Notes: generated from the sequence alone by a model not told the origin. A stretch of 11,202 nt of DNA from Candidatus Firestoneibacteriota bacterium (GCA_043822305.1 JBDRBU010000071.1:1-11202); one strand, 5' to 3'; shown: positions 1 through 11,202, counted from the stretch's first letter. A program made the numbers and translations.

Positions 1-72
1 TTTGCTAAATAATATTTTATGGTTAAGTCCTCTTACACGAAATTTCAATTTTGGATTATAATAAACATTCAT
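1..72 (-). CDS. 5' end of a probable DUF559/Vsr-like endonuclease-domain gene (partial, possibly degenerate; runs off window)
   Basis: ATG at 72 opens MNVYYNPKLKFRVRGLNHKILFSK. YNPKLKxRxRxL resembles the N-terminus of DUF559 proteins. A CCCCCTT..AAGGGGG palindrome lies directly upstream. Only 24 codons are visible. Confidence 0.45.
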   Translation of the reverse strand, partial: MNVYYNPKLKFRVRGLNHKILFSK

Positions 73-79
73 AACAACA

Positions 80-110
80 ACCCCCTTGATCCCCCTTAAC
101 AAAGGGGGAA
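80..110. repeat. Short C/G-run palindromic element (ACCCCCTTGATCCCCCTTAACAAAGGGGGAA)
   Basis: Stem TCCCCCTT (90-97) / AAGGGGGA (102-109) with a 4-nt loop, preceded by a second CCCCCTT (81-87). Confidence 0.7.
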
Positions 111-162
111 TACAATCCTCACGGCTTTCACTGACTATTTACGTAAAAATAGTGTCCCTTTT

Positions 163-3613: not shown

Positions 3614-5175
3614 ACTTCCTCCTGTTTCAAATTAAAAACAGTAATCTCAATATTTTTGAAATAACTCAGGATATCTACTAACAAATTAAATCTACCTTCT
3701 TCATCTAAAATACCTTCTGAGAGTTTAATATGAGCAGCATCAACTATATCCTCATTAAAAGTCGGGTCCATGCCAATCCACTTTCCAACATAAACTTCTA
3801 TCCACATATGGTAATAAAACTTATCTTTCATAAGAACTAATCCACCACATACTTTAGTTGGCACTCCTACCGCTTTACACAAAGCACTGGCTAAAACAGA
3901 ATGCTCGGTACAATCACCTTCTTTCAATTCAAGTGTTTCTCTGGCAGAATTAAACCCGACACTAAAATTTTTATTCTTAACAAAATCATAAACCCAGTTT
4001 ATAATCTTTTTTGCTGCTTTAAAGGAATTCTTTTCTTCTCCAACAATTTTCTTTGCTGTTTCAATTATGCCCTTATCGCTTGACTGTTCATATAATGTTT
4101 CTTTTAAATATTTCTCATAATTTTTATCTAAGATTGGAATACTTATTGCCTGAGAATCATCAAATTTTTCTTTTTTTATAGAACATATTGCTGTCTTATC
4201 TTTTATAATATTAATACATGTTCTTTCTATATTTTCGCCAGAAAGATTTTTAGGAATTCCACTTTTAAAAAATATACTAACATTCAGACCAACTACATTT
4301 CTGGGGTCATCGACACTCCTGTTTGACTTAATAGCATATTCAGATATAATATCAACACTTCCCGAATATTCTTTTAACGCATCTTCTTTATTTGTTTTAA
4401 CCATAGTGATTCCTAATTGAGCAAATTCGGACTTTAAGGTATACCCTTTCTTATCAATATAATGAGTAGAAATAATACCTTTTAGTTCTGTCTCAACTAT
4501 AAAAAATTCTTTTCCATGACTTTCCATAGTGTAATTATAATATTTAGGAATGGTTGCATCCTTTGGCAGACCATCTTCTTTTCTTAATTCTTTCACATTT
4601 ATATTTATACTTTCAACCTTCATAGTATCTTTACTGAAAGTTTTGACTTTAAATCTGTCACCAACTTTGTACCCCTTTGTTCTTAAGTATTCATCAACAT
4701 TATCATCAAGTATAACATCTTTCTCGAAAGGTATCTCATATTCATTAGTTAAACCTGCTAATTTACTTTTGATATAAAGTTTTTTATTTTTTAATTTACC
4801 TTCAATCTCTCTATGACTTTCCCTAGTGTCCATAAAATGTTTAGGAATGGTTGCATTTTTTAGCAGACCATTTTGATTACCCATTGTTTCAATGTATTTA
4901 AAAAACAAAGGTGTTAAATCTTCTTTTAAATAGCAAGTAGAATCTGCTTTTAAATGAATATTGGCCTCAAACCGTTTCAAATTAATATCCATAAAAATAG
5001 TTTCTTTTAAACAACCTTGATTTTCATAATCAGATTTCTCAAGTCCATCATAACAGTAACCTATTTTAACATCTTCAATATAAACATTAAACCAATGAAC
5101 CAAAGGTAATTCATAACTAAATCCATTAATACAGCAAACAAAAATTATTAAAAAAATTATTGATATTTTTTTCAT
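3592..5175 (-). CDS. Exported transglutaminase-like (Cys-His-Asp) domain protein
   Basis: Signal peptide [20 protein letters not shown] from 5175 (alternative GTG start at 5187). Catalytic motifs [21 protein letters not shown]. Overlaps the gatB start by 22 bp. Confidence 0.88.
4516..4574. repeat. 59-bp intragenic repeat, copy 1
   Basis: 50/59 identical, ungapped, to 4813-4871. Encodes [19 protein letters not shown]. Confidence 0.9.
4813..4871. repeat. 59-bp intragenic repeat, copy 2
   Basis: Encodes [19 protein letters not shown]; 297 bp (99 codons) from copy 1, same frame. Confidence 0.9.
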
Positions 5176-5208
5176 TCCTTTTTTCACTTTCTTTACTTTA
5201 TTTGCTCG

Positions 5209-5247
5209 TGTCATTGCGAGGTCGCCTGAGGCGACCATGGCCATCTC
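5209..5247 (+). repeat. GTCATTGCGAG-type palindromic element
   Basis: TGTCATTGCGA-GGTCGCC-TGA-GGCGACC-ATGGCCATCTC with a 7-bp perfect stem. Lies within a 71-bp segment flanked by the 13-bp direct repeat CTTTCTTTACTTT (5187-5199, 5271-5283). Confidence 0.75.
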
Positions 5248-5306
5248 GTAGTTAACGGATTTCAGTGAACCTTTCTTTACTTTCTTTTCTTTTTTTACTA
5301 TTTTTA

Positions 5307-5382
5307 TGGAGCTGACGGTCGGATTTGAACCGACGACCTGCTGATTACGAATCAGCTGCTCTACCAACTGAGCTACATCAGC
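5307..5382 (-). tRNA. tRNA-Thr (anticodon CGT), 76 nt, encoded CCA
   Basis: GCTGATGTAGCTCAGTTGGTAGAGCAGCTGATTCGTAATCAGCAGGTCGTCGGTTCAAATCCGACCGTCAGCTCCA folds into a full cloverleaf: acceptor GCTGATG/CGTCAGC, anticodon stem GCTGA/TCAGC, T-loop TTCAAAT. Confidence 0.98.
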
Positions 5383-5393
5383 GTCTGATTAGT

Positions 5394-5422
5394 ATTGTAA
5401 CAAATTTAAAGCGTTTTATCAA
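5394..5422 (-). promoter_or_regulatory. sigma70-type promoter for the intact tRNA-Thr
   Basis: TTGATA (5422-5417), 17-bp spacer, TACAAT (5399-5394), with extended -10 TG. Confidence 0.8.
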
Positions 5423-5465
5423 TTTAATATCTAAACTATAAGCTAAAAATTGCCTTTAAGTTAAC

Positions 5466-5476
5466 CTGTCCAAATT
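5466..5476 (+). repeat. Arm-site-like motif near the left island end
   Basis: CTGTCCAAATT, 10/11 match to the tandem unit CTGTCCGAATT at 9178-9199. Confidence 0.5.
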
Positions 5477-5758
5477 TTATTTAAAAATTGACTGGGTTCA
5501 AAAACATATAAATCTGGCATTTTTCATTGTAATATAAAGACTTCACAATAAAAATAATAGAACAGATATTCCATTCAATTGAAAAAAATCAGATACTCTA
5601 ATTACATGAACTAACAGTGTATGTTTTTAACTTGCAAAAACAAGCTAAATATTAGTAATTGGATTAACTCATTGACTATCTGATTTAAAGTTAGGGGTTT
5701 TAAAAGATTTTTCTGACTTACTATTAAGAATTCATCCATAATTTATCTGTTCTAAAAA

Positions 5759-6037
5759 TTAAAAATTCGGGAATGGTATTTTAATAGAATCATTAATCTT
5801 TATTTCTGAATCAATAATATCTATTTTTTCCACATCACTAATTTCCTTAGAAAATATTCGTTTCAAATAGAAATTGTTTAGATTAATAATGGCTATTCCC
5901 TCTCCTCTTGTACCAATAATTAAATAGGGTCTTTTTATCTTTAATACAGTAGTCCAACTATACATATCTTTTGGATGGAATAGCGGTAACAGAGTACAGT
6001 AACCTTCTTTTTCATTTTCTTTTTCATATTCTCCACT
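5759..6037 (-). pseudogene. 5'-truncated gene fragment, beta-propeller-like C-terminus
   Basis: The frame stays open 24 codons upstream of the ATG at 5965, back to a TAA at 6038-6040. YLIIGTRGEGIAIINL resembles a propeller blade. GGAG (6031-6034) plus ATG (6027) is in a different frame. Confidence 0.45.
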
Positions 6038-6049
6038 TTAGTGCTTCAG

Positions 6050-6586
6050 TTACAAAATTAGTATACTATCAATTATTGCTTTATCTGCATATTTCGTGTA
6101 ATTATTACTATTTATATTTCCATAAATATTATTACTACTACATGAAATCCCAAAACTCATTTTTCCTTGTTTCTTAAAAATAGCAACAATACCTTCACCG
6201 TATACTATTTCTGGTACTCCATATACTTTTACTGCCTCTGCAAGTGTCGAACCTACGTGAATACCTTCTTTAGTCTTACATCTTGGACTTATTACTGTTA
6301 TCCTGTATATTTTTCCTTTGTCTTCTTCTAAATAAAATAATTTTTCACCTTTTTTTTCTTTAACAAATAAAATCGGGCATTTTTCCCCTTCAAGTTCTAT
6401 GGTGCTTTTTTCACAAATAAACCGTTTGGAAAGTATCTTTTCAGCTTCTTTTATATCTTTTCCTACCTTCACCCCTTCAATTGATGAATCACCAGGAATA
6501 ATATATTCTTTTTTGTCTGTATCGAAAGATTCGGTATTGCAACCGATAATGAACAATAGCACTAAAATCAATTTTATCTTGTTCAT
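6050..6586 (-). CDS. Lipoprotein of unknown function
   Basis: 178 aa. Signal peptide with lipobox-like IIGC. Two related motifs, IEGVKVG and KEGIHVG. GAGGA RBS upstream. Confidence 0.8.
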   Translation of the reverse strand: MNKIKLILVLLFIIGCNTESFDTDKKEYIIPGDSSIEGVKVGKDIKEAEKILSKRFICEKSTIELEGEKCPILFVKEKKGEKLFYLEEDKGKIYRITVISPRCKTKEGIHVGSTLAEAVKVYGVPEIVYGEGIVAIFKKQGKMSFGISCSSNNIYGNINSNNYTKYADKAIIDSILIL

Positions 6587-6602
6587 CTTTCATCCTCTTT
6601 AA

Positions 6603-6664
6603 ATCATACTATATTAATAGTTTTGTTAAAGAAAAAACAGAGTAAAAATGTCCGAATTCTGTCC
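6603..6664 (-). promoter_or_regulatory. Promoter-like block plus TGTCCGAATTCTGTCC repeat upstream of the 178-aa gene
   Basis: 6603-6630 is 22/28 identical to 9144-9171 (minus strand TTTAACAAA...TATGAT). 6649-6664 is identical to 9179-9194. Confidence 0.7.
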
Positions 6665-6670
6665 ATAGTT

Positions 6671-9124
6671 TTAATCGAATAACTTTAAAATATCCTCACA
6701 AAATCTCAGTTTAAGGTATTTTGCTCCCCTGAAAGCAGATGTGCTATAAAGCATCCAATAAATGCCCTCTTTATCTTGTGTTAAAAAATATTTACCAACC
6801 CAAAAAGTAGTAAGACGTTTGGGATTACTCCAAACAACTCCGTCATCCGAATAACATAAATAAATACTAGTTTTGTTATAAGAAATATAAATTTTGTCTT
6901 TATTATCACAAAAAACATTAAGACCATCATAGTAATCCGGTGGCTTACTACCACTGCGTCTATCCCATATAACCACCTTAGGTTCTGACCAGATTTTACC
7001 ATCTTTTGATGTGCTTACTTTAAGATATGTTATTTCATCACAGTAATTCTCTAAATCCCCTTTGACTTTTTTCTCTTTAGACCTCCATCTTTCAACCCAA
7101 GTGGCAAAAAAATTGCCTTTTGAATCTTGAGTAATTTTAACTGTATTCCAAGTCCTTCTTTCATATTCGTCATCTTTTGGTGGATCATAGATTATGTATT
7201 TTTCTGTAATATTTTTAAAGTCATTTGTATAACTTACGCTAAGAAGTTTTGCATTCGGATCGTGATGCGCAAGACAATACTTACCATTATTTAAGGGGAA
7301 AATACTGTAATCAAGATGCCCTTCTTTAAACATAATTGGTGTTGTCCAATCACGCATGTTATTGGTAACAGTAGTATAAACCCCAACCATATCGGAAGAT
7401 CTATACTCTGAAGATAAATGAACACTTGACCCTCTCTGAAAAACAAGGCATAAATCCTCTTTTACCTCATATAGTAATAAATGAAAATCATCATCAATAG
7501 AATTAAAAACCAGTCGTTCTGGTTGTTGCCATAATTTTTTGTTTTTAGTATCATTCCAGGAAATATATATATCTTTGTCTTTATCTTTTTCTTCCTGTGC
7601 CCAAAAAATAATATCTGGTTTGTCATTTATTCTATGTAAAATTTTCAAATCATATATCATCCCATCTGTTTTTGCTATCGTAACTGGTTCGCTCCAAACA
7701 CCATTTTTATCTTTGTCTTCTATAACATAATTTCTTTTTACTTCTTGATTTTTCCCAATCTCGATTTCTTCAACAATAGGTTTGAGTTTTAAGTTTGGAT
7801 CATCATCGGAATACGCGGTTATTTCTAATTTGTGCTTGCCTGCTGGTATACCGGATACAACAAATGGCGTTGATCTAAAAGGTTTATCATCCATCCAAAC
7901 ATCAGCTTCATCAGGAATTGAAGTAACATTCAGAGTTCCGCTATCCTCTGATATTGGTTTAAGTTTGAAAGATATATTCCATTCAAAGAGCAAAGAATTT
8001 TGCTCACTTATTTCTAAAATTATATTTTTCACACCTTCTAGCAATATACTTTCTCCTTCTTTTGTTGTTTTATCACTACTCTTATTTACTAAATTTATAA
8101 ATTGTTTTATTTCTTTACCAATCCTTCTCGGAAATGCAGGGAAACTCGTAAAATACATTTGGCTGTAGCAATACGGACTTTCAGGTTTATTGTTTTTGGC
8201 TGTTAATCTTGTTTTTAAACTCTCTATCGTATATCCTTTAGGCGATTTAAATACATATTTCCAAATTCTGGTGGAACTATTTTTAATATAAGGTTTTCCA
8301 TTCTCGTCCATTTTCCAACGGCCAAGGAAATAATAAAAAGCATTCTCGTATTTTGTGTTTTCACCGACTTTTTCTTCATAAAAAGGCTTTTGTTTGTTTA
8401 TTTCAATAATATGTGGGAACTGAGGAGTATTCACATCTTTTTCATATTGGCGCATATATAACTCGAGTAATTCGTATAATGACCTATCTTTATCACTATC
8501 AAATAAATAAGATACAGCCTTTTGATAATATTCCATTGCTCCTCTTTCATTCCCCATTTTTTTATGAAATTGTGCAATCTTGTATAATATTCGCCCTATT
8601 AATTTCCATTTCTCGTAAACCCTATCATCTTTCCTATTTTTTCTTACCATGTCATGAACTACATTTCCAGTTTGTGCAATTCCAATATCATTTTCCAGTT
8701 TTTTAAGTTGTTCCTTGCTTACCATTGATTCAAAGATATTCACAGTTTTTTCGTAAGCAGTAATTGCCTTTTTATAATCTTTTAATGCCTTTTCGTATAT
8801 TTCTCCTATCTCAATGCTTATATCAAAAAGCTGTTCCCTTTCAACAAGTCCTTCATTCGCCACTATTTCATTATATTCTTCAATTGCACTCGAATACTCT
8901 CCTCGGTAAAAATACATCTTACCAAGTAAATATTTTGAATCATAATATTTATCATTATTATTTTCAACTTGTTTCAGTTCCACAAGGGCTTCAGAATATT
9001 TTCCATCTTTAAAAAATTCCATTCCTCTGTCATAACGATAGGGATTATGGATTTTTTTAATTGCACAGGAAAAAGAAATAAAAATAACACATATCAAATA
9101 AAAAGATTTGAATTTTCTCCACAT
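6671..9124 (-). CDS. Lipoprotein with TPR repeats, PEGA domain and BNR/Asp-box (sialidase-fold) beta-propeller
   Basis: Signal peptide ending SFSC. TPR-like helices (YLLGKMYFYRGEYSSAIEEY; IGEIYEKALKDYKKAITAY). PEGA-like GTLNVTSIPDEADVWMDD..TPFVVSGIPAGKHKLEI. Asp-boxes SKDGKIW and SDDGVVW. Confidence 0.82.
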   Translation of the reverse strand: MWRKFKSFYLICVIFISFSCAIKKIHNPYRYDRGMEFFKDGKYSEALVELKQVENNNDKYYDSKYLLGKMYFYRGEYSSAIEEYNEIVANEGLVEREQLFDISIEIGEIYEKALKDYKKAITAYEKTVNIFESMVSKEQLKKLENDIGIAQTGNVVHDMVRKNRKDDRVYEKWKLIGRILYKIAQFHKKMGNERGAMEYYQKAVSYLFDSDKDRSLYELLELYMRQYEKDVNTPQFPHIIEINKQKPFYEEKVGENTKYENAFYYFLGRWKMDENGKPYIKNSSTRIWKYVFKSPKGYTIESLKTRLTAKNNKPESPYCYSQMYFTSFPAFPRRIGKEIKQFINLVNKSSDKTTKEGESILLEGVKNIILEISEQNSLLFEWNISFKLKPISEDSGTLNVTSIPDEADVWMDDKPFRSTPFVVSGIPAGKHKLEITAYSDDDPNLKLKPIVEEIEIGKNQEVKRNYVIEDKDKNGVWSEPVTIAKTDGMIYDLKILHRINDKPDIIFWAQEEKDKDKDIYISWNDTKNKKLWQQPERLVFNSIDDDFHLLLYEVKEDLCLVFQRGSSVHLSSEYRSSDMVGVYTTVTNNMRDWTTPIMFKEGHLDYSIFPLNNGKYCLAHHDPNAKLLSVSYTNDFKNITEKYIIYDPPKDDEYERRTWNTVKITQDSKGNFFATWVERWRSKEKKVKGDLENYCDEITYLKVSTSKDGKIWSEPKVVIWDRRSGSKPPDYYDGLNVFCDNKDKIYISYNKTSIYLCYSDDGVVWSNPKRLTTFWVGKYFLTQDKEGIYWMLYSTSAFRGAKYLKLRFCEDILKLFD

Positions 9125-9143
9125 TTTACATATCCCCTTTTTT

Positions 9144-9199
9144 ATTATACCATTATTATAGATTTGTTAAATAAAAACTGTCCGAATTCTGTCCGAATT
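9144..9199 (-). promoter_or_regulatory. Promoter-like block plus tandem 11-bp repeat upstream of the 817-aa gene
   Basis: Extended -10 TGGTATAAT (9152-9144). Perfect tandem CTGTCCGAATT x2 (9178-9188, 9189-9199). Confidence 0.72.
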
Positions 9200-9316
9200 T
9201 TCTGGTCAAAAGAGGTTAAATCTGATTAAGTCTGAAAAATACAGAATTCAGATTTTTCCTTACGTTATCAATACTTACTAGTAAAAATAAGAGGAGCATG
9301 TAATCCATTTTTTGTT

Positions 9317-9356
9317 TTACGAATCAGCTGCTCTACCAACTGAGCTACATCAGCGT
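9317..9356 (-). pseudogene. Displaced 5' half of tRNA-Thr (att junction)
   Basis: Identical to 5345-5384. The sequence diverges immediately after the anticodon loop TTCGTAA. Confidence 0.92.
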
Positions 9357-9362
9357 AGAAAT

Positions 9363-9391
9363 ATTATAGCAAATTTAAGTGGTTTTAGCAA
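9363..9391 (-). promoter_or_regulatory. sigma70-type promoter upstream of the tRNA fragment (probable native tRNA promoter)
   Basis: TTGCTA (9391-9386), 17-bp spacer, TATAAT (9368-9363), extended -10 TG. 23/29 identical to 5394-5422. Confidence 0.82.
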
Positions 9392-9477
9392 ACTAACTTT
9401 TTAAAATAGTTTTTAAAATAGAACAAAATAGAAAGAATGATGAAAAGTTTAAGAGGTTTAGAAGCAGGCTGTGGTGC

Positions 9478-9486
9478 TGTGGATAA
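9478..9486 (-). promoter_or_regulatory. Perfect DnaA box (TTATCCACA)
   Basis: TGTGGATAA on the + strand, intergenic; only one perfect copy seen. Confidence 0.35.
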
Positions 9487-9689
9487 CTTTGTAAAGGGGT
9501 GGGTCATTTTGATTACAAAAAATGGGACTTTTTACTTGCAATTTACACATGTTAGTAATATATACTGTGTTTTCTTTCTTGCTTTATATGTTTTTTTATC
9601 CTTTGGTTTATTTTGTTTACAACAGCAAAAGTTCTTAATAATAACAAATACAAGGTACTTTTTAGGACATCGGCAGTTGTCCCAAGTTT

Positions 9690-10817
9690 TTATTTTTTCT
9701 GTTTACCATCTGAAAACAGCAAACCATAATGTACATTACGGCCTTTGCCCGGAAGCTGATACAGTAACTTTTTTTCCAGCAAATCAGCAATCTCTCTAAA
9801 GGCCGTAGCCCGGCTGGTTTTTGTCAAACCGACATATTTACGGGTAGTCAGCCCGCCGGTAAACCCATTAGGGACGGCTTCAAGCATCCGGCTGATTACC
9901 TTTTTTTGCCTTGCATTAAGTTCTGATTGCGCATGTTTGTTCCAGAAATCCGACTTCATGAATACTCCGGCAATTATGTCTTGAGAACGTTCAATTGACG
10001 CTTTCAGGTTTTGAATGAACCATAAGAACCATGCTGTGGTATCCTTCCGACAGCACTGTACATCCTCCAGCACCTTATAATATGATTCCCTTGAACGCAT
10101 GATCTCCGAAGAAAGGCTGTAGTATCGCACATTAGTTTTCTCGTCCTGTGAAAGCGCCATGTCCGTGATAGCCCTTGCCAGTCGCCCGTTGCCGTCCTCA
10201 TAAGGATGAATGGTAAGGAACCTCAAATGCGACGCCGCCGCGCGCAAGACACCATCCATGCCGATCCGCGAGATTTTCCACCAATCAAGAAAAAGCGAAA
10301 TCTCATTTTTAAGGCATCCCACTGGAAGAGCTTCATAGTGAATCTTTTCCTTGCCAATAGGCCCCGACACAACGCGCATTGGCGCGCTTCCCCTGATTTT
10401 CCCCGTCTTTATTTTTCTAATGCCGGAATAACCGGAAGGAAACAAAGAAGCCTGCCAGCTGTTAATCCTTTTAAGGGTAAGTGGTTTATTATGAAACCGC
10501 ACGGCATCCAGAAGGACATCTACAAGACCGTCAACATTTCTATCATGAGGGCCGATACCGGCAGGCAATCCAAGCTTTACTGCCACGGACGAGCGGACGG
10601 CTTCAGCACTGAGTTTTTGTCCCTCGATCTCGGCGGTATGGACCGTTTCTTCGACCAGAACGGCTCCCTGTGCTTCAGTTTCCAGTTTCAGGTCCAAAGA
10701 AGCGACACGGCCGAGTAATTTTCCCTGTAACACTCTCAACTCGCTCAAAGGCCCAAGCAAAACAGAATCATCGTATTTAAAATCATACCAGTTTTTACGC
10801 GACCAGATATACTGCAT
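9690..10817 (-). CDS. Fic family protein with N-terminal DUF4172-like region and C-terminal winged HTH
   Basis: Fic motif HPYEDGNGRLAR; inhibitory-helix motif TAEIEG; N-terminus MQYIWSRKNW; C-terminal LTTRKYVGLTKTSRATAFREIADL. GGAG RBS. Confidence 0.93.
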   Translation of the reverse strand: MQYIWSRKNWYDFKYDDSVLLGPLSELRVLQGKLLGRVASLDLKLETEAQGAVLVEETVHTAEIEGQKLSAEAVRSSVAVKLGLPAGIGPHDRNVDGLVDVLLDAVRFHNKPLTLKRINSWQASLFPSGYSGIRKIKTGKIRGSAPMRVVSGPIGKEKIHYEALPVGCLKNEISLFLDWWKISRIGMDGVLRAAASHLRFLTIHPYEDGNGRLARAITDMALSQDEKTNVRYYSLSSEIMRSRESYYKVLEDVQCCRKDTTAWFLWFIQNLKASIERSQDIIAGVFMKSDFWNKHAQSELNARQKKVISRMLEAVPNGFTGGLTTRKYVGLTKTSRATAFREIADLLEKKLLYQLPGKGRNVHYGLLFSDGKQKK

Positions 10818-10832
10818 TCTAATCTTCTCCCG

Positions 10833-10901
10833 TGAAGCGATTACCCATTTAATCGCCTCATATTATGATACGATTATAGCATATAATCGCCCGACCGTCA
10901 A
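10833..10901 (-). promoter_or_regulatory. fic promoter with two palindromic operators
   Basis: TTGACG (10901-10896), 17-bp spacer, TATAAT (10878-10873). Inverted repeats TGAAGCGATTA/TAATCGCCTCA (10833-10860) and CGATTATA/TATAATCG (10871-10889). Confidence 0.8.
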
Positions 10902-11111
10902 GTATAAAACACAAAAAAATCTTTTGTTATCATAGATGGGTAACAGTATTGTATAATAGAGAAGGTGTAGATCCTCAAAGACGGAGTAAATTCCATAGTA
11001 AAAGCCGAGATTTATTCCATAGTGTTTATACCACATTTTAGAACTTATCTCAATGTTTTTCGATGAACAGAAATTGATCACCTCCTCTATTTTAAGATTT
11101 GATAACATCAT
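10863..11111 (-). CDS. Hypothetical protein, possibly a truncated remnant
   Basis: ATGA overlap with the upstream ORF stop. The 3' end runs through the fic promoter. No recognisable motif. Confidence 0.3.
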   Translation of the reverse strand: MMLSNLKIEEVINFCSSKNIEISSKMWYKHYGINLGFYYGIYSVFEDLHLLYYTILLPIYDNKRFFCVLYLTVGRLYAIIVS

Positions 11112-11202
11112 TTAAACTTCCTTTTTGAAAAGTAAAAATCAATTATATCCTCTTCACCAATCATTCTTGCCTTCTCATTTCGCTTTATTTCAATTATTTT
11201 TA
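11108..11202 (-). CDS. 3' end of an unknown CDS entering from beyond the window
   Basis: Open frame KIIEIKRNEKARMIGEEDIIDFYFSKRKFK ending TGA at 11110-11108. Confidence 0.45.
   Translation of the reverse strand, partial: KIIEIKRNEKARMIGEEDIIDFYFSKRKFK

Follow-up and report, generated by a model that had tools for sequence, protein, structure and literature searches.

An integrase-less, probably decayed island as the likely source of the promoter and 5′ half of a tRNA-Thr gene in a Candidatus Firestoneibacteriota genome

Introduction

Lambda-type tyrosine integrases have arm-type sites on both arms of the attachment site attP. In streptococci, cis-mobilisable elements (CIMEs) lack an integrase, are flanked by the attachment (att) sites of integrative and conjugative elements, lie at the 3′ end of a protein-coding gene and are mobilised in trans. 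Here we describe island 1, an interval of 3932 base pairs (bp) upstream of a transfer RNA (tRNA) gene, tRNA-Thr(CGU). It lies in the 11,202-bp stretch of DNA that was analysed (the window), which is the whole of contig C71 in a draft genome of a Candidatus Firestoneibacteriota bacterium (125 contigs, 2.15 Mb, 31.6% guanine + cytosine (GC)). We consider it likely that island 1 is a decayed, integrase-less remnant of a tyrosine-integrase island, from a family that enters tRNA genes on the 5′ side, at the anticodon loop. Like CIMEs, island 1 consists of cargo bounded by attachment sites, has no recombinase of its own and belongs to a tandem accretion at one site. It differs from them in adjoining a tRNA gene instead of a protein-coding one, and the mobilisation in trans demonstrated for CIMEs would be hypothetical here.

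Islands that carry a displaced 5′ fragment of their target tRNA gene (tDNA) have been described. Table 1 of the Islander paper (Hudson, Lau and Williams 2015; PMC4383910) counts 3919 islands: the displaced piece comes from the 3′ part in 3760 of them and from the 5′ part in 159, and 2083 fall in the anticodon-centred class. These counts agree with the initial annotation of the window, which held that integration restoring the 5′ rather than the 3′ part of a tRNA is the rarer geometry. As set out in that paper, an island has an intact tDNA, a co-oriented terminal fragment on the expected side and an integrase gene inside the island. Like the 5′-fragment islands counted there, the locus described here has an intact tDNA with a co-oriented upstream fragment, would fall in the anticodon-centred class and apparently forms a tandem array at one tDNA; unlike them, island 1 contains no integrase, and the host is an uncultured AT-rich lineage. 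Because that pipeline, as described, requires an integrase in each island, it would reject island 1. Apart from the missing integrase, island 1 probably works like, and descends from, the 5′-fragment kind of island, and its mechanism is a known, rare one.

A second account, of archaeal elements (PMC6563490), describes recombination with the 5′-distal part of the tRNA as 'considerably less frequent' and attributes arrays to re-use of the site; it cites Krupovic and Bamford 2008, Krupovic 2010, Gaudin 2014, Cossu 2017 and Zhao and Williams 2002, and includes CalSub-E1 in tRNA-Ser. The present locus resembles the elements of that account in its 5′-side recombination and in its array at one site. 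It differs from those archaeal proviruses and plasmids in having a bacterial host, a sigma-70-type promoter and a lambda-like three-domain integrase layout in its family. A text search of the literature on 5′-half integration returned no match.

Results

The tRNA-Thr gene and its displaced 5′ half

The features that define the locus are as follows, in nucleotides (nt) of the window; ORF stands for open reading frame.

5307-5382, minus strand: intact tRNA-Thr(CGU), anticodon CGT, found by ARAGORN; the sole tRNA found in the window
5307-5344: nt 39-76 of the tRNA, on the chromosomal side
5345-5382: nt 1-38 of the tRNA, on the island side
5345-5384: repeat copy A, tRNA nt 1-38 plus 2 nt, within the functional gene; identical to 9317-9356 at 40/40 positions
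9317-9356: repeat copy B, which has nt 1-38 of tRNA-Thr plus 2 nt, displaced from the gene and without the 3′ half
5394-5422, minus strand: predicted promoter A, TTGATA-17-TACAAT with TG, score 10/12; predicted start at about 5387, 5 nt before the tRNA
9363-9391, minus strand: predicted promoter B, TTGCTA-17-TATAAT with TG, score 10/12; directed into the half tRNA and then the gene for an 817-amino acid (aa) protein
5385-9316: island 1, 3932 bp between the exact repeat copies, with three co-oriented minus-strand ORFs

The tRNA-Thr gene was also matched by the Rfam tRNA model RF00005 (5310-5382, 74.7 bits), and the Rfam scan yielded this tRNA alone. The repeat search returned a direct repeat at 5345-5400 and 9317-9372, of which the first 40 nt are identical. 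These 40 nt are tRNA nt 1-38 and 2 nt upstream of them, and in the alignment identity stops at the final base of the anticodon loop, TTCGTAA. Fragment (9317-9354) and gene (5307-5382) both lie on the minus strand and match at 38/38 positions, the fragment being 3.9 kb upstream in the tRNA sense. The 40-bp repeat of the initial annotation, with its end at the anticodon loop, was confirmed. An exact repeat of 40 nt in a contig of 31.6% GC is far beyond chance.

Each copy is preceded by a promoter-like sequence, and the promoter scan confirmed the pair of diverged sigma70 promoters, with 17-bp spacers and extended −10 sites, that had been annotated there. A and B (29 nt each) are 23/29 identical. 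The 22 promoter-like sites found in 5100-9700 are not above chance for AT-rich DNA (24.7 ± 5.5 in shuffled sequences); the TG before the −10 site occurs at A and B only. In order-level relatives the tRNA-Thr(CGU) promoter is conserved, in the form TTGCTAAAAC...TTTGCTAAAAT, and A and B are each 18-22/29 identical to it. Promoter A is homologous to the tRNA-Thr(CGU) promoters of these relatives; its activity is predicted. By this similarity A and B both descend from chromosomal tRNA-Thr promoters of the lineage, and neither can be called native by similarity alone. The initial annotation had taken the occurrence of the 5394-5422 promoter at the native locus of relatives as a point against an island; with both promoters at 18-22/29 to the relatives and 23/29 to each other, such an occurrence does not discriminate. 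An identical tRNA part beside promoters that have diverged by 21% would be easier to explain if two attP regions had been acquired separately than if the segment had recently been duplicated in place. The terminator scan listed no terminator-like site on the minus strand from 9316 to 9124.

As a separate observation, this tRNA-Thr contains a wobble pair, U6-G67, in its acceptor stem, where 12/12 relatives and one metagenome relative (L042) have U6-A67.

The island-side junction belongs to a family of P′ arms

Beyond copy B, inside island 1, lies the junction sequence referred to here as the P′ arm.

9179-9301, minus strand: island-side junction (P′ arm), with conserved blocks ...GCTCCTCTTATTT... 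and AATCAGATTTAAC (9209-9239)
9178 and 9189: perfect tandem pair of CTGTCCGAA, 11-nt period, read as putative arm-type integrase sites

To describe this family, a profile hidden Markov model was built from seven P′ arms and run with nhmmer against the whole genome. Three of the arms came from an array of displaced tRNA-Ser fragments in the same genome and four from relatives (G002, G007, G008 and G012), where the junctions beyond displaced fragments were taken; both Thr copies were excluded. The window was matched at 9179-9301 with E 6.3e-8 (profile positions 14-134), the only match below E 0.1 in the 2.15-Mb genome that was not a training sequence. All four hits below E 0.1 genome-wide lie after tRNA fragments, and the next match (E 0.13) is the junction of a tRNA-Arg fragment on contig C72. 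A block matching at 27/31 positions lies beyond copy B (in the tRNA sense) at the same offset as in the junction of tRNA-Ser copy 3, and 0/300 random genomic pairs reached as high a match.

Read by eye, the family has the order: fragment, GCT.TTC.CTT.TTT block, TCAGATTTA block, and then two TGG.CAC-type repeats with an 11-nt period, about 110-140 nt from the core. Both the conserved blocks and the tandem pair stand at the family distances in 9179-9301.

Displaced 5′ fragments in the same genome

Partial copies of each of the 42 tRNAs were sought genome-wide. Eight were found, and seven of these are 5′ fragments ending at nt 25-43 (Ser three times, Arg, Thr twice and one Phe-like). Those outside the window and its neighbour contig, with the intact tRNA-Ser, are:

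C102, array 18645-29350: three exact tRNA-Ser(UGA) fragments, nt 1-42/43, 4.2 and 6.4 kb apart
C102:29555-29612: Arg pseudo-tRNA, nt 15-72, inside the Ser array; the eighth partial copy
C72:1327-1368: tRNA-Arg(CCU) 5′ fragment, nt 2-43
C94:290-332: Phe-like 5′ half, nt 1-25 as in tRNA-Phe, with an anticodon stem-loop that reads CGT (Thr)
C9:18111-18199: intact tRNA-Ser(UGA), within an integrase and tRNA region at C9:18111-19330

The tRNA-Ser array is a larger array of the same kind as the tRNA-Thr locus. Neither of its intervals (4.2 and 6.4 kb) contains an intact integrase by PF00589 scan or tblastn. In one of them a 25-nt motif, TTTTGG[TG]CACGATTTGGGCAAATTT, stands at both ends (24/25 identical; 0/300 random pairs as high), and in its tRNA-proximal copy the final 13 codons of a former integrase gene are preserved. 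The Phe-like half heads a contig that is rich in methyltransferase and helicase genes.

At the intact tRNA-Ser on C9, a 362-aa tyrosine integrase is encoded in the same orientation, its stop codon 43 nt before the tRNA. It matches PF00589 at E 6e-43, has a SAM-like core-binding domain and gives a sub-threshold N-terminal match to Arm-DNA-bind_2 (E 0.0018; 18.7 bits vs a cut-off of 22), so that DNA binding by this part is putative. The arm motif on either side of the gene, GGGCACGATTTGGGCAA, differs from that at tRNA-Thr. In its domains (catalytic, SAM-like core-binding and, by a weak match, arm-binding) the protein resembles lambda-type integrases, as does the family in its paired 11-nt-period repeats, about 70-95 nt before the tRNA fragment and about 110-140 nt after it.

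The integrase clade and its geometry in relatives

Homologues of the C9 integrase (E <= 1e-30) are present in 38/99 genomes of the phylum. Among the 30 best in-phylum loci, 11 are at least 39% identical, and 10 of these 11 have a co-oriented tRNA 46-161 nt downstream; the eleventh runs off its own contig. Remoter homologues (<=35%) have mostly an opposite-strand tRNA or none. On contigs from many phyla, 31/80 loci have a same-strand tRNA less than 600 nt downstream and 13 an opposite-strand one, the remainder having no tRNA, no room or a partial match. Three of the 31 same-strand loci are at tRNA-Thr(CGT) and are intact from integrase to tRNA (L090, L092 and L093).

No 5′ fragment was found upstream in 4-kb flanks around 109 integrase loci, which gave a few 3′ fragments or other partial copies (L086, L091, L105, L109 and L114). 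The whole-genome search found displaced 5′ fragments in 6/6 in-phylum relatives tested, with ends at nt 37, 39, 39, 43, 43, 43 and 45:

G002: tRNA-Gly, nt 1-37, 19.6 kb upstream on the same contig and strand; integrase adjoins the tRNA
G010: tRNA-Met, nt 1-43, 37.4 kb upstream on the same contig and strand; integrase adjoins the tRNA
G007: tRNA-Ser, nt 15-43, 2.2 kb upstream
G008: tRNA-Glu, nt 1-39, twice, on other contigs
G012: tRNA-Gly, nt 1-45, on another contig
G021: tRNA-Leu, nt 1-43, plus a 3′ fragment (nt 32-89), on other contigs

The reversed geometry of the clade is therefore directly visible in two cases, each on a single contig (G002 and G010), and the other four in-phylum genomes are consistent with it. 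At tRNA-Thr, too, the fragment starts at nt 1 and ends just past the anticodon loop, at nt 38 (nt 37-45 in the family).

Could the promoter and 5′ half have been copied by a local rearrangement, that is, by segmental duplication, illegitimate recombination or gene conversion, without site-specific recombination? An interval with no recombinase, cargo that looks native and the GC content of the genome would suit such an event. However, the copied part breaks off precisely where the anticodon loop ends; like fragments occur at four tRNA types in this genome and in 6/6 relatives tested (ends at nt 37-45); the sequence beyond the fragment matches the P′ profile, all of whose four hits below E 0.1 lie after tRNA fragments; and a recent duplication does not predict promoters 21% diverged next to an identical tRNA part. 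We regard a local rearrangement as highly improbable.

A third copy and an older island

The window ends inside a mobile element, the rest of which is found on contig C19:

10988-11202 of the window: end of an IS21-family element; other end at C19:2385-2405, IstB at C19:172-930, IstA at C19:896-2314
C19:3014-3052, same orientation: copy C, a decayed tRNA-Thr 5′ fragment, 34/36 over tRNA nt 4-39
9357-11202 and on into C19 up to copy C: island 2 (older), with a Fic gene, the IS21 element and the C-terminal relic of a transposase
9690-10817, minus strand: Fic/DUF4172 gene, foreign cargo of island 2, 48-49% GC (about 9600-10900) vs 31.6% for the genome

The final 141 nt of the window are exactly the first 141 nt of C19, and the 21-nt terminal inverted repeats of the IS21 element are split over the two contigs, one at window 10988-11008 and one at C19:2385-2405. 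From this overlap and the one terminal repeat on each contig, C71 and C19 are adjacent. Copy C lies about 5 kb further upstream; its 5′ end is damaged and its promoter has a shortened spacer. Beyond it are genes for peptidase M28, RtcB, a FecR-domain protein and other housekeeping functions.

The tRNA-Thr locus therefore looks like a tandem array of two islands. The initial annotation had treated copy B and its promoter as the native side of the insertion. With a third, decayed copy on C19 marking an older island, that assignment was given up: copy B is probably a relic of the older island rather than the native attB side, and promoter B was probably itself borne by an element.

An error of assembly or binning, in which the contig fuses different strains or organisms at the repeat, was also weighed. 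The genome is a draft in many contigs, by our own reading probably binned from a metagenome, and the segment of 48% GC at 9600-10900 looks alien. Against this, the 40-bp repeat is much shorter than the 141-nt overlaps at contig ends, which makes its collapse or creation by the assembly unlikely; each copy has unique sequence on either side, the left flank is syntenic with 12/12 relatives, and further contigs and genomes show the same architecture. Such an artefact is extremely improbable.

Three observations on island 2 may be added. The NCBIfam matches of the Fic/DUF4172 gene, to Fic adenylyltransferase and 'mobile mystery protein B', are weak and far below threshold. The IS21 element was apparently inserted in another transposase gene, of which, by eye, about 50 C-terminal codons are left (C19, about 2400-2551). 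A partial second copy of the IS21 element is present on contig C70.

A proposed course of events and the missing integrase

These results can be explained by the following scheme. A family of elements would recombine in or at the anticodon loop and insert on the 5′ side of the tRNA gene. In its circular form the integrase gene would be followed by a short spacer that carries a promoter, then by a copy of tRNA nt 1 to about 38-45 and finally by the P′ arm. Integration would displace the resident promoter and 5′ half upstream (at the Thr locus, copy B, 9317-9356). An intact gene would result, made up of a promoter and 5′ half brought by the element (5345-5422) and the 3′ half already in place (5307-5344). 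At least two insertions would have taken place here: copy C would be the oldest preserved boundary, the stretch from C to B the older island, and that from B to A, island 1, the last to arrive. A later deletion would have removed the integrase gene of island 1 together with most of the P arm.

The part of the initial annotation that proposed integration in the rarer geometry is supported: a displaced 5′ fragment, its end at the anticodon loop, a 5′ half and promoter of the gene on the island side, and membership of the P′ family. The part that saw a self-contained element of about 3.97 kb is not, since the interval contains no integrase or other recombinase gene; a 3.97-kb circle is thus not expected unless an integrase acts in trans.

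What remains of the tRNA-proximal end is a single motif:

5466-5474: single CTGTCCAAA unit (TTTGGACAG in the tRNA sense), at the same distance from the tRNA as the TGG.CAC pair of intact elements

In the intact elements (C9, L080, L090, L092 and L093) the integrase gene has a TGG.CAC repeat pair in its final codons, some 60-95 nt ahead of the tRNA. The unit at 5466-5474, which the P′ profile does not match, may just possibly be the last relic of an integrase 3′ end and P arm. With the tRNA-proximal end so weakly preserved (one unit, and a P vs P′ likeness that is not significant), we read 5425-5758 as what would remain after deletion of the integrase gene. Unlike lambda-type systems, the window keeps only the P′ pair intact; the arm-type role of these repeats is putative.

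Several findings weigh against a decayed integrase island. The window yielded neither an integrase, whole or in part, nor any other recombinase: Pfam searches of the three ORFs of island 1 gave no such match, the genome scanned in six frames for PF00589 had five hits, none on C71, and tblastn with the C9 integrase (E <= 10) had no match on this contig. In the C9-type family a co-oriented integrase gene ends 40-160 nt upstream of the tRNA; at tRNA-Thr the 376 nt upstream (5383-5758) are non-coding, followed by a 68-aa ORF, with no similarity to an integrase. On the P-arm side there is one 9-nt unit where intact elements have two, and the best P vs P′ match, 12/13, was reached by 50/300 random pairs and is not significant. 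The cargo does not look foreign: the GC content of island 1 is that of the genome, a paralogue of the 817-aa protein is encoded elsewhere in the genome, and the 61% identity of the 178-aa protein to a protein of G010 lies inside the range of the flanking orthologues (44-68%). The nearest genomes that could be compared belong to other families, and their upstream neighbours differ among themselves and from this genome; the assembly, as noted, is a draft in 125 contigs. L092, the only genome tested outside the phylum, has no displaced fragment. Finally, the tRNA at L091 has a co-oriented integrase upstream and, 3 kb downstream, a 3′ fragment (nt 31-77). L109 has the conventional geometry, in which the 3′ fragment (nt 32-86) and the integrase lie on the same side, the fragment at 4.9 kb, and taken together these two members of the same broad integrase family suggest that both geometries use the anticodon loop.

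The missing integrase could also mean that none was ever present. Island 1 would then be a satellite or cassette with attachment sites, moved in trans by the integrase of a full-size tRNA-Thr element and perhaps still mobile. The 40/40 identity of the repeat copies is compatible with this, as are a P′ arm that keeps a perfect tandem pair and fits the family profile, the equal lack of an intact integrase in the other small intervals (the Ser array), and the existence elsewhere of intact integrase-to-tRNA-Thr(CGT) loci (L090, L092 and L093). Yet the assembly, which is 96.8% complete, contains no integrase with matching arm sites, the C9 gene being flanked by GGGCACGATTTGGGCAA; the P arm has one unit instead of the two of intact elements; neither a circle nor an empty site was seen; and one Ser interval retains the last 13 integrase codons, a remnant that argues for deletion rather than original absence. 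We consider a satellite doubtful. A decayed island that once encoded its integrase accounts better for these remnants, and island 1 is most likely immobile now.

A broader proposal, which we think unlikely, is that the small integrase-less intervals are cassettes that this clade stacks, in the manner of an integron, 5′ of tRNA genes, with displaced tRNA promoters driving co-oriented cargo and the cassettes still moving in trans. Each new cassette would place the earlier strong tRNA promoter, with its half tRNA still attached, ahead of the newcomer's own cargo. Promoter B has the orientation of each of the three ORFs of island 1, and the scan lists no terminator-like site between these on that strand; if the proposal held, promoter B would drive the gene of the 817-aa lipoprotein as a transcript led by half a tRNA.

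Searches for an empty site and for close relatives

The initial annotation had suggested a comparison with related genomes for an empty site. In 12 order-level relatives no displaced tRNA-Thr fragment was found in the upstream flanks examined (52 nt to 7.9 kb; more than 4 kb in 8/12), and no homologue of an island gene at the tRNA-Thr locus. The lack of an empty site follows from the distance of the nearest genomes compared and from their different upstream neighbours. Those neighbours were considered as possible integrases and rejected: they are a PilT-type ATPase in one family and ABC transporter genes in another.

A DNA search of 30 relatives with the whole window matched only the left flank, the tRNA and the gene of the 178-aa protein. 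An exact scan of metagenomes with the 38-nt 5′ half gave 10 loci, nine of them in unrelated organisms that have the same tRNA half; viral contigs gave 0 matches. In the metagenome relative L042 the transglutaminase-like protein is 56% identical, and the contig stops 10 nt past the tRNA.

Implications of the geometry

The locus is a clean example, at the level of sequence, of the minority geometry, in which a housekeeping tRNA depends on a promoter and a 5′ half from mobile DNA. Possibly more useful than the window itself is the integrase clade: in many uncultured phyla its genes lie directly upstream of, and co-oriented with, the target tRNA, and displaced 5′ fragments accompany it in every in-phylum genome tested. 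Island-finding pipelines that accept an interval only if it contains an integrase will overlook the small members of such arrays that have none, and annotation pipelines may take displaced units of promoter and half tRNA for noise.

Cargo of island 1 and other features of the contig

The genes of island 1 and one internal repeat are:

5759-5965, minus strand: 68-aa ORF without a family match; may not be a real gene
6050-6586, minus strand: 178-aa predicted lipoprotein (lipobox read by eye) without a family match
6671-9124, minus strand: 817-aa predicted lipoprotein, cargo, with TPR, PEGA and weak BNR-like matches and a lipoprotein-type N-terminus
6598-6671: internal copy of the 9139-9201 segment, including ATGTCCGAATTCTGTCC, directly upstream of the gene of the 178-aa protein

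The G010 protein similar to the 178-aa lipoprotein is encoded at L045, where the 16 kb examined around it contain no tRNA. The paralogue of the 817-aa protein is a 792-aa open frame on C70, alike in two segments (35% and 25-27% identity); it is situated at C70:19376-21103, about 1.7 kb downstream of tRNA-Glu(CTC) on the same strand. The segment at 6598-6671, found among the repeat families, can be read as what is left of a second island end or as an upstream region common to the two cargo genes; the P′ profile has no match there.

A transposon or insertion sequence was considered as the identity of island 1 and rejected: 5385-9316 contains no transposase, and the IS21 element lies outside it. 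Among the 25 longest of 102 inverted repeats, none has arms within about 150 nt of the island ends (5385 and 9316).

To the left of the tRNA the gene order PilZ, RumA-like methyltransferase, GatB, transglutaminase-like protein, tRNA-Thr is kept in the 12/12 order-level relatives fetched. The gene of the transglutaminase-like protein contains a 65-nt direct repeat (4513-4577 and 4810-4874, 83% identical, 297 nt apart), probably an internal domain duplication. The left end of the contig, window 1-149, is a repeat of about 140 nt that is 77-100% identical on more than 20 other contigs, often in a terminal position. GC-rich short hairpins lie between genes at 692-740, 1737-1776, 2116-2155 and 5206-5290 and recur on many contigs; some of them have GTAG in front, for example GTAGCCGCAGGCTTTAGCCTGCG, and resemble REP-type repeats.

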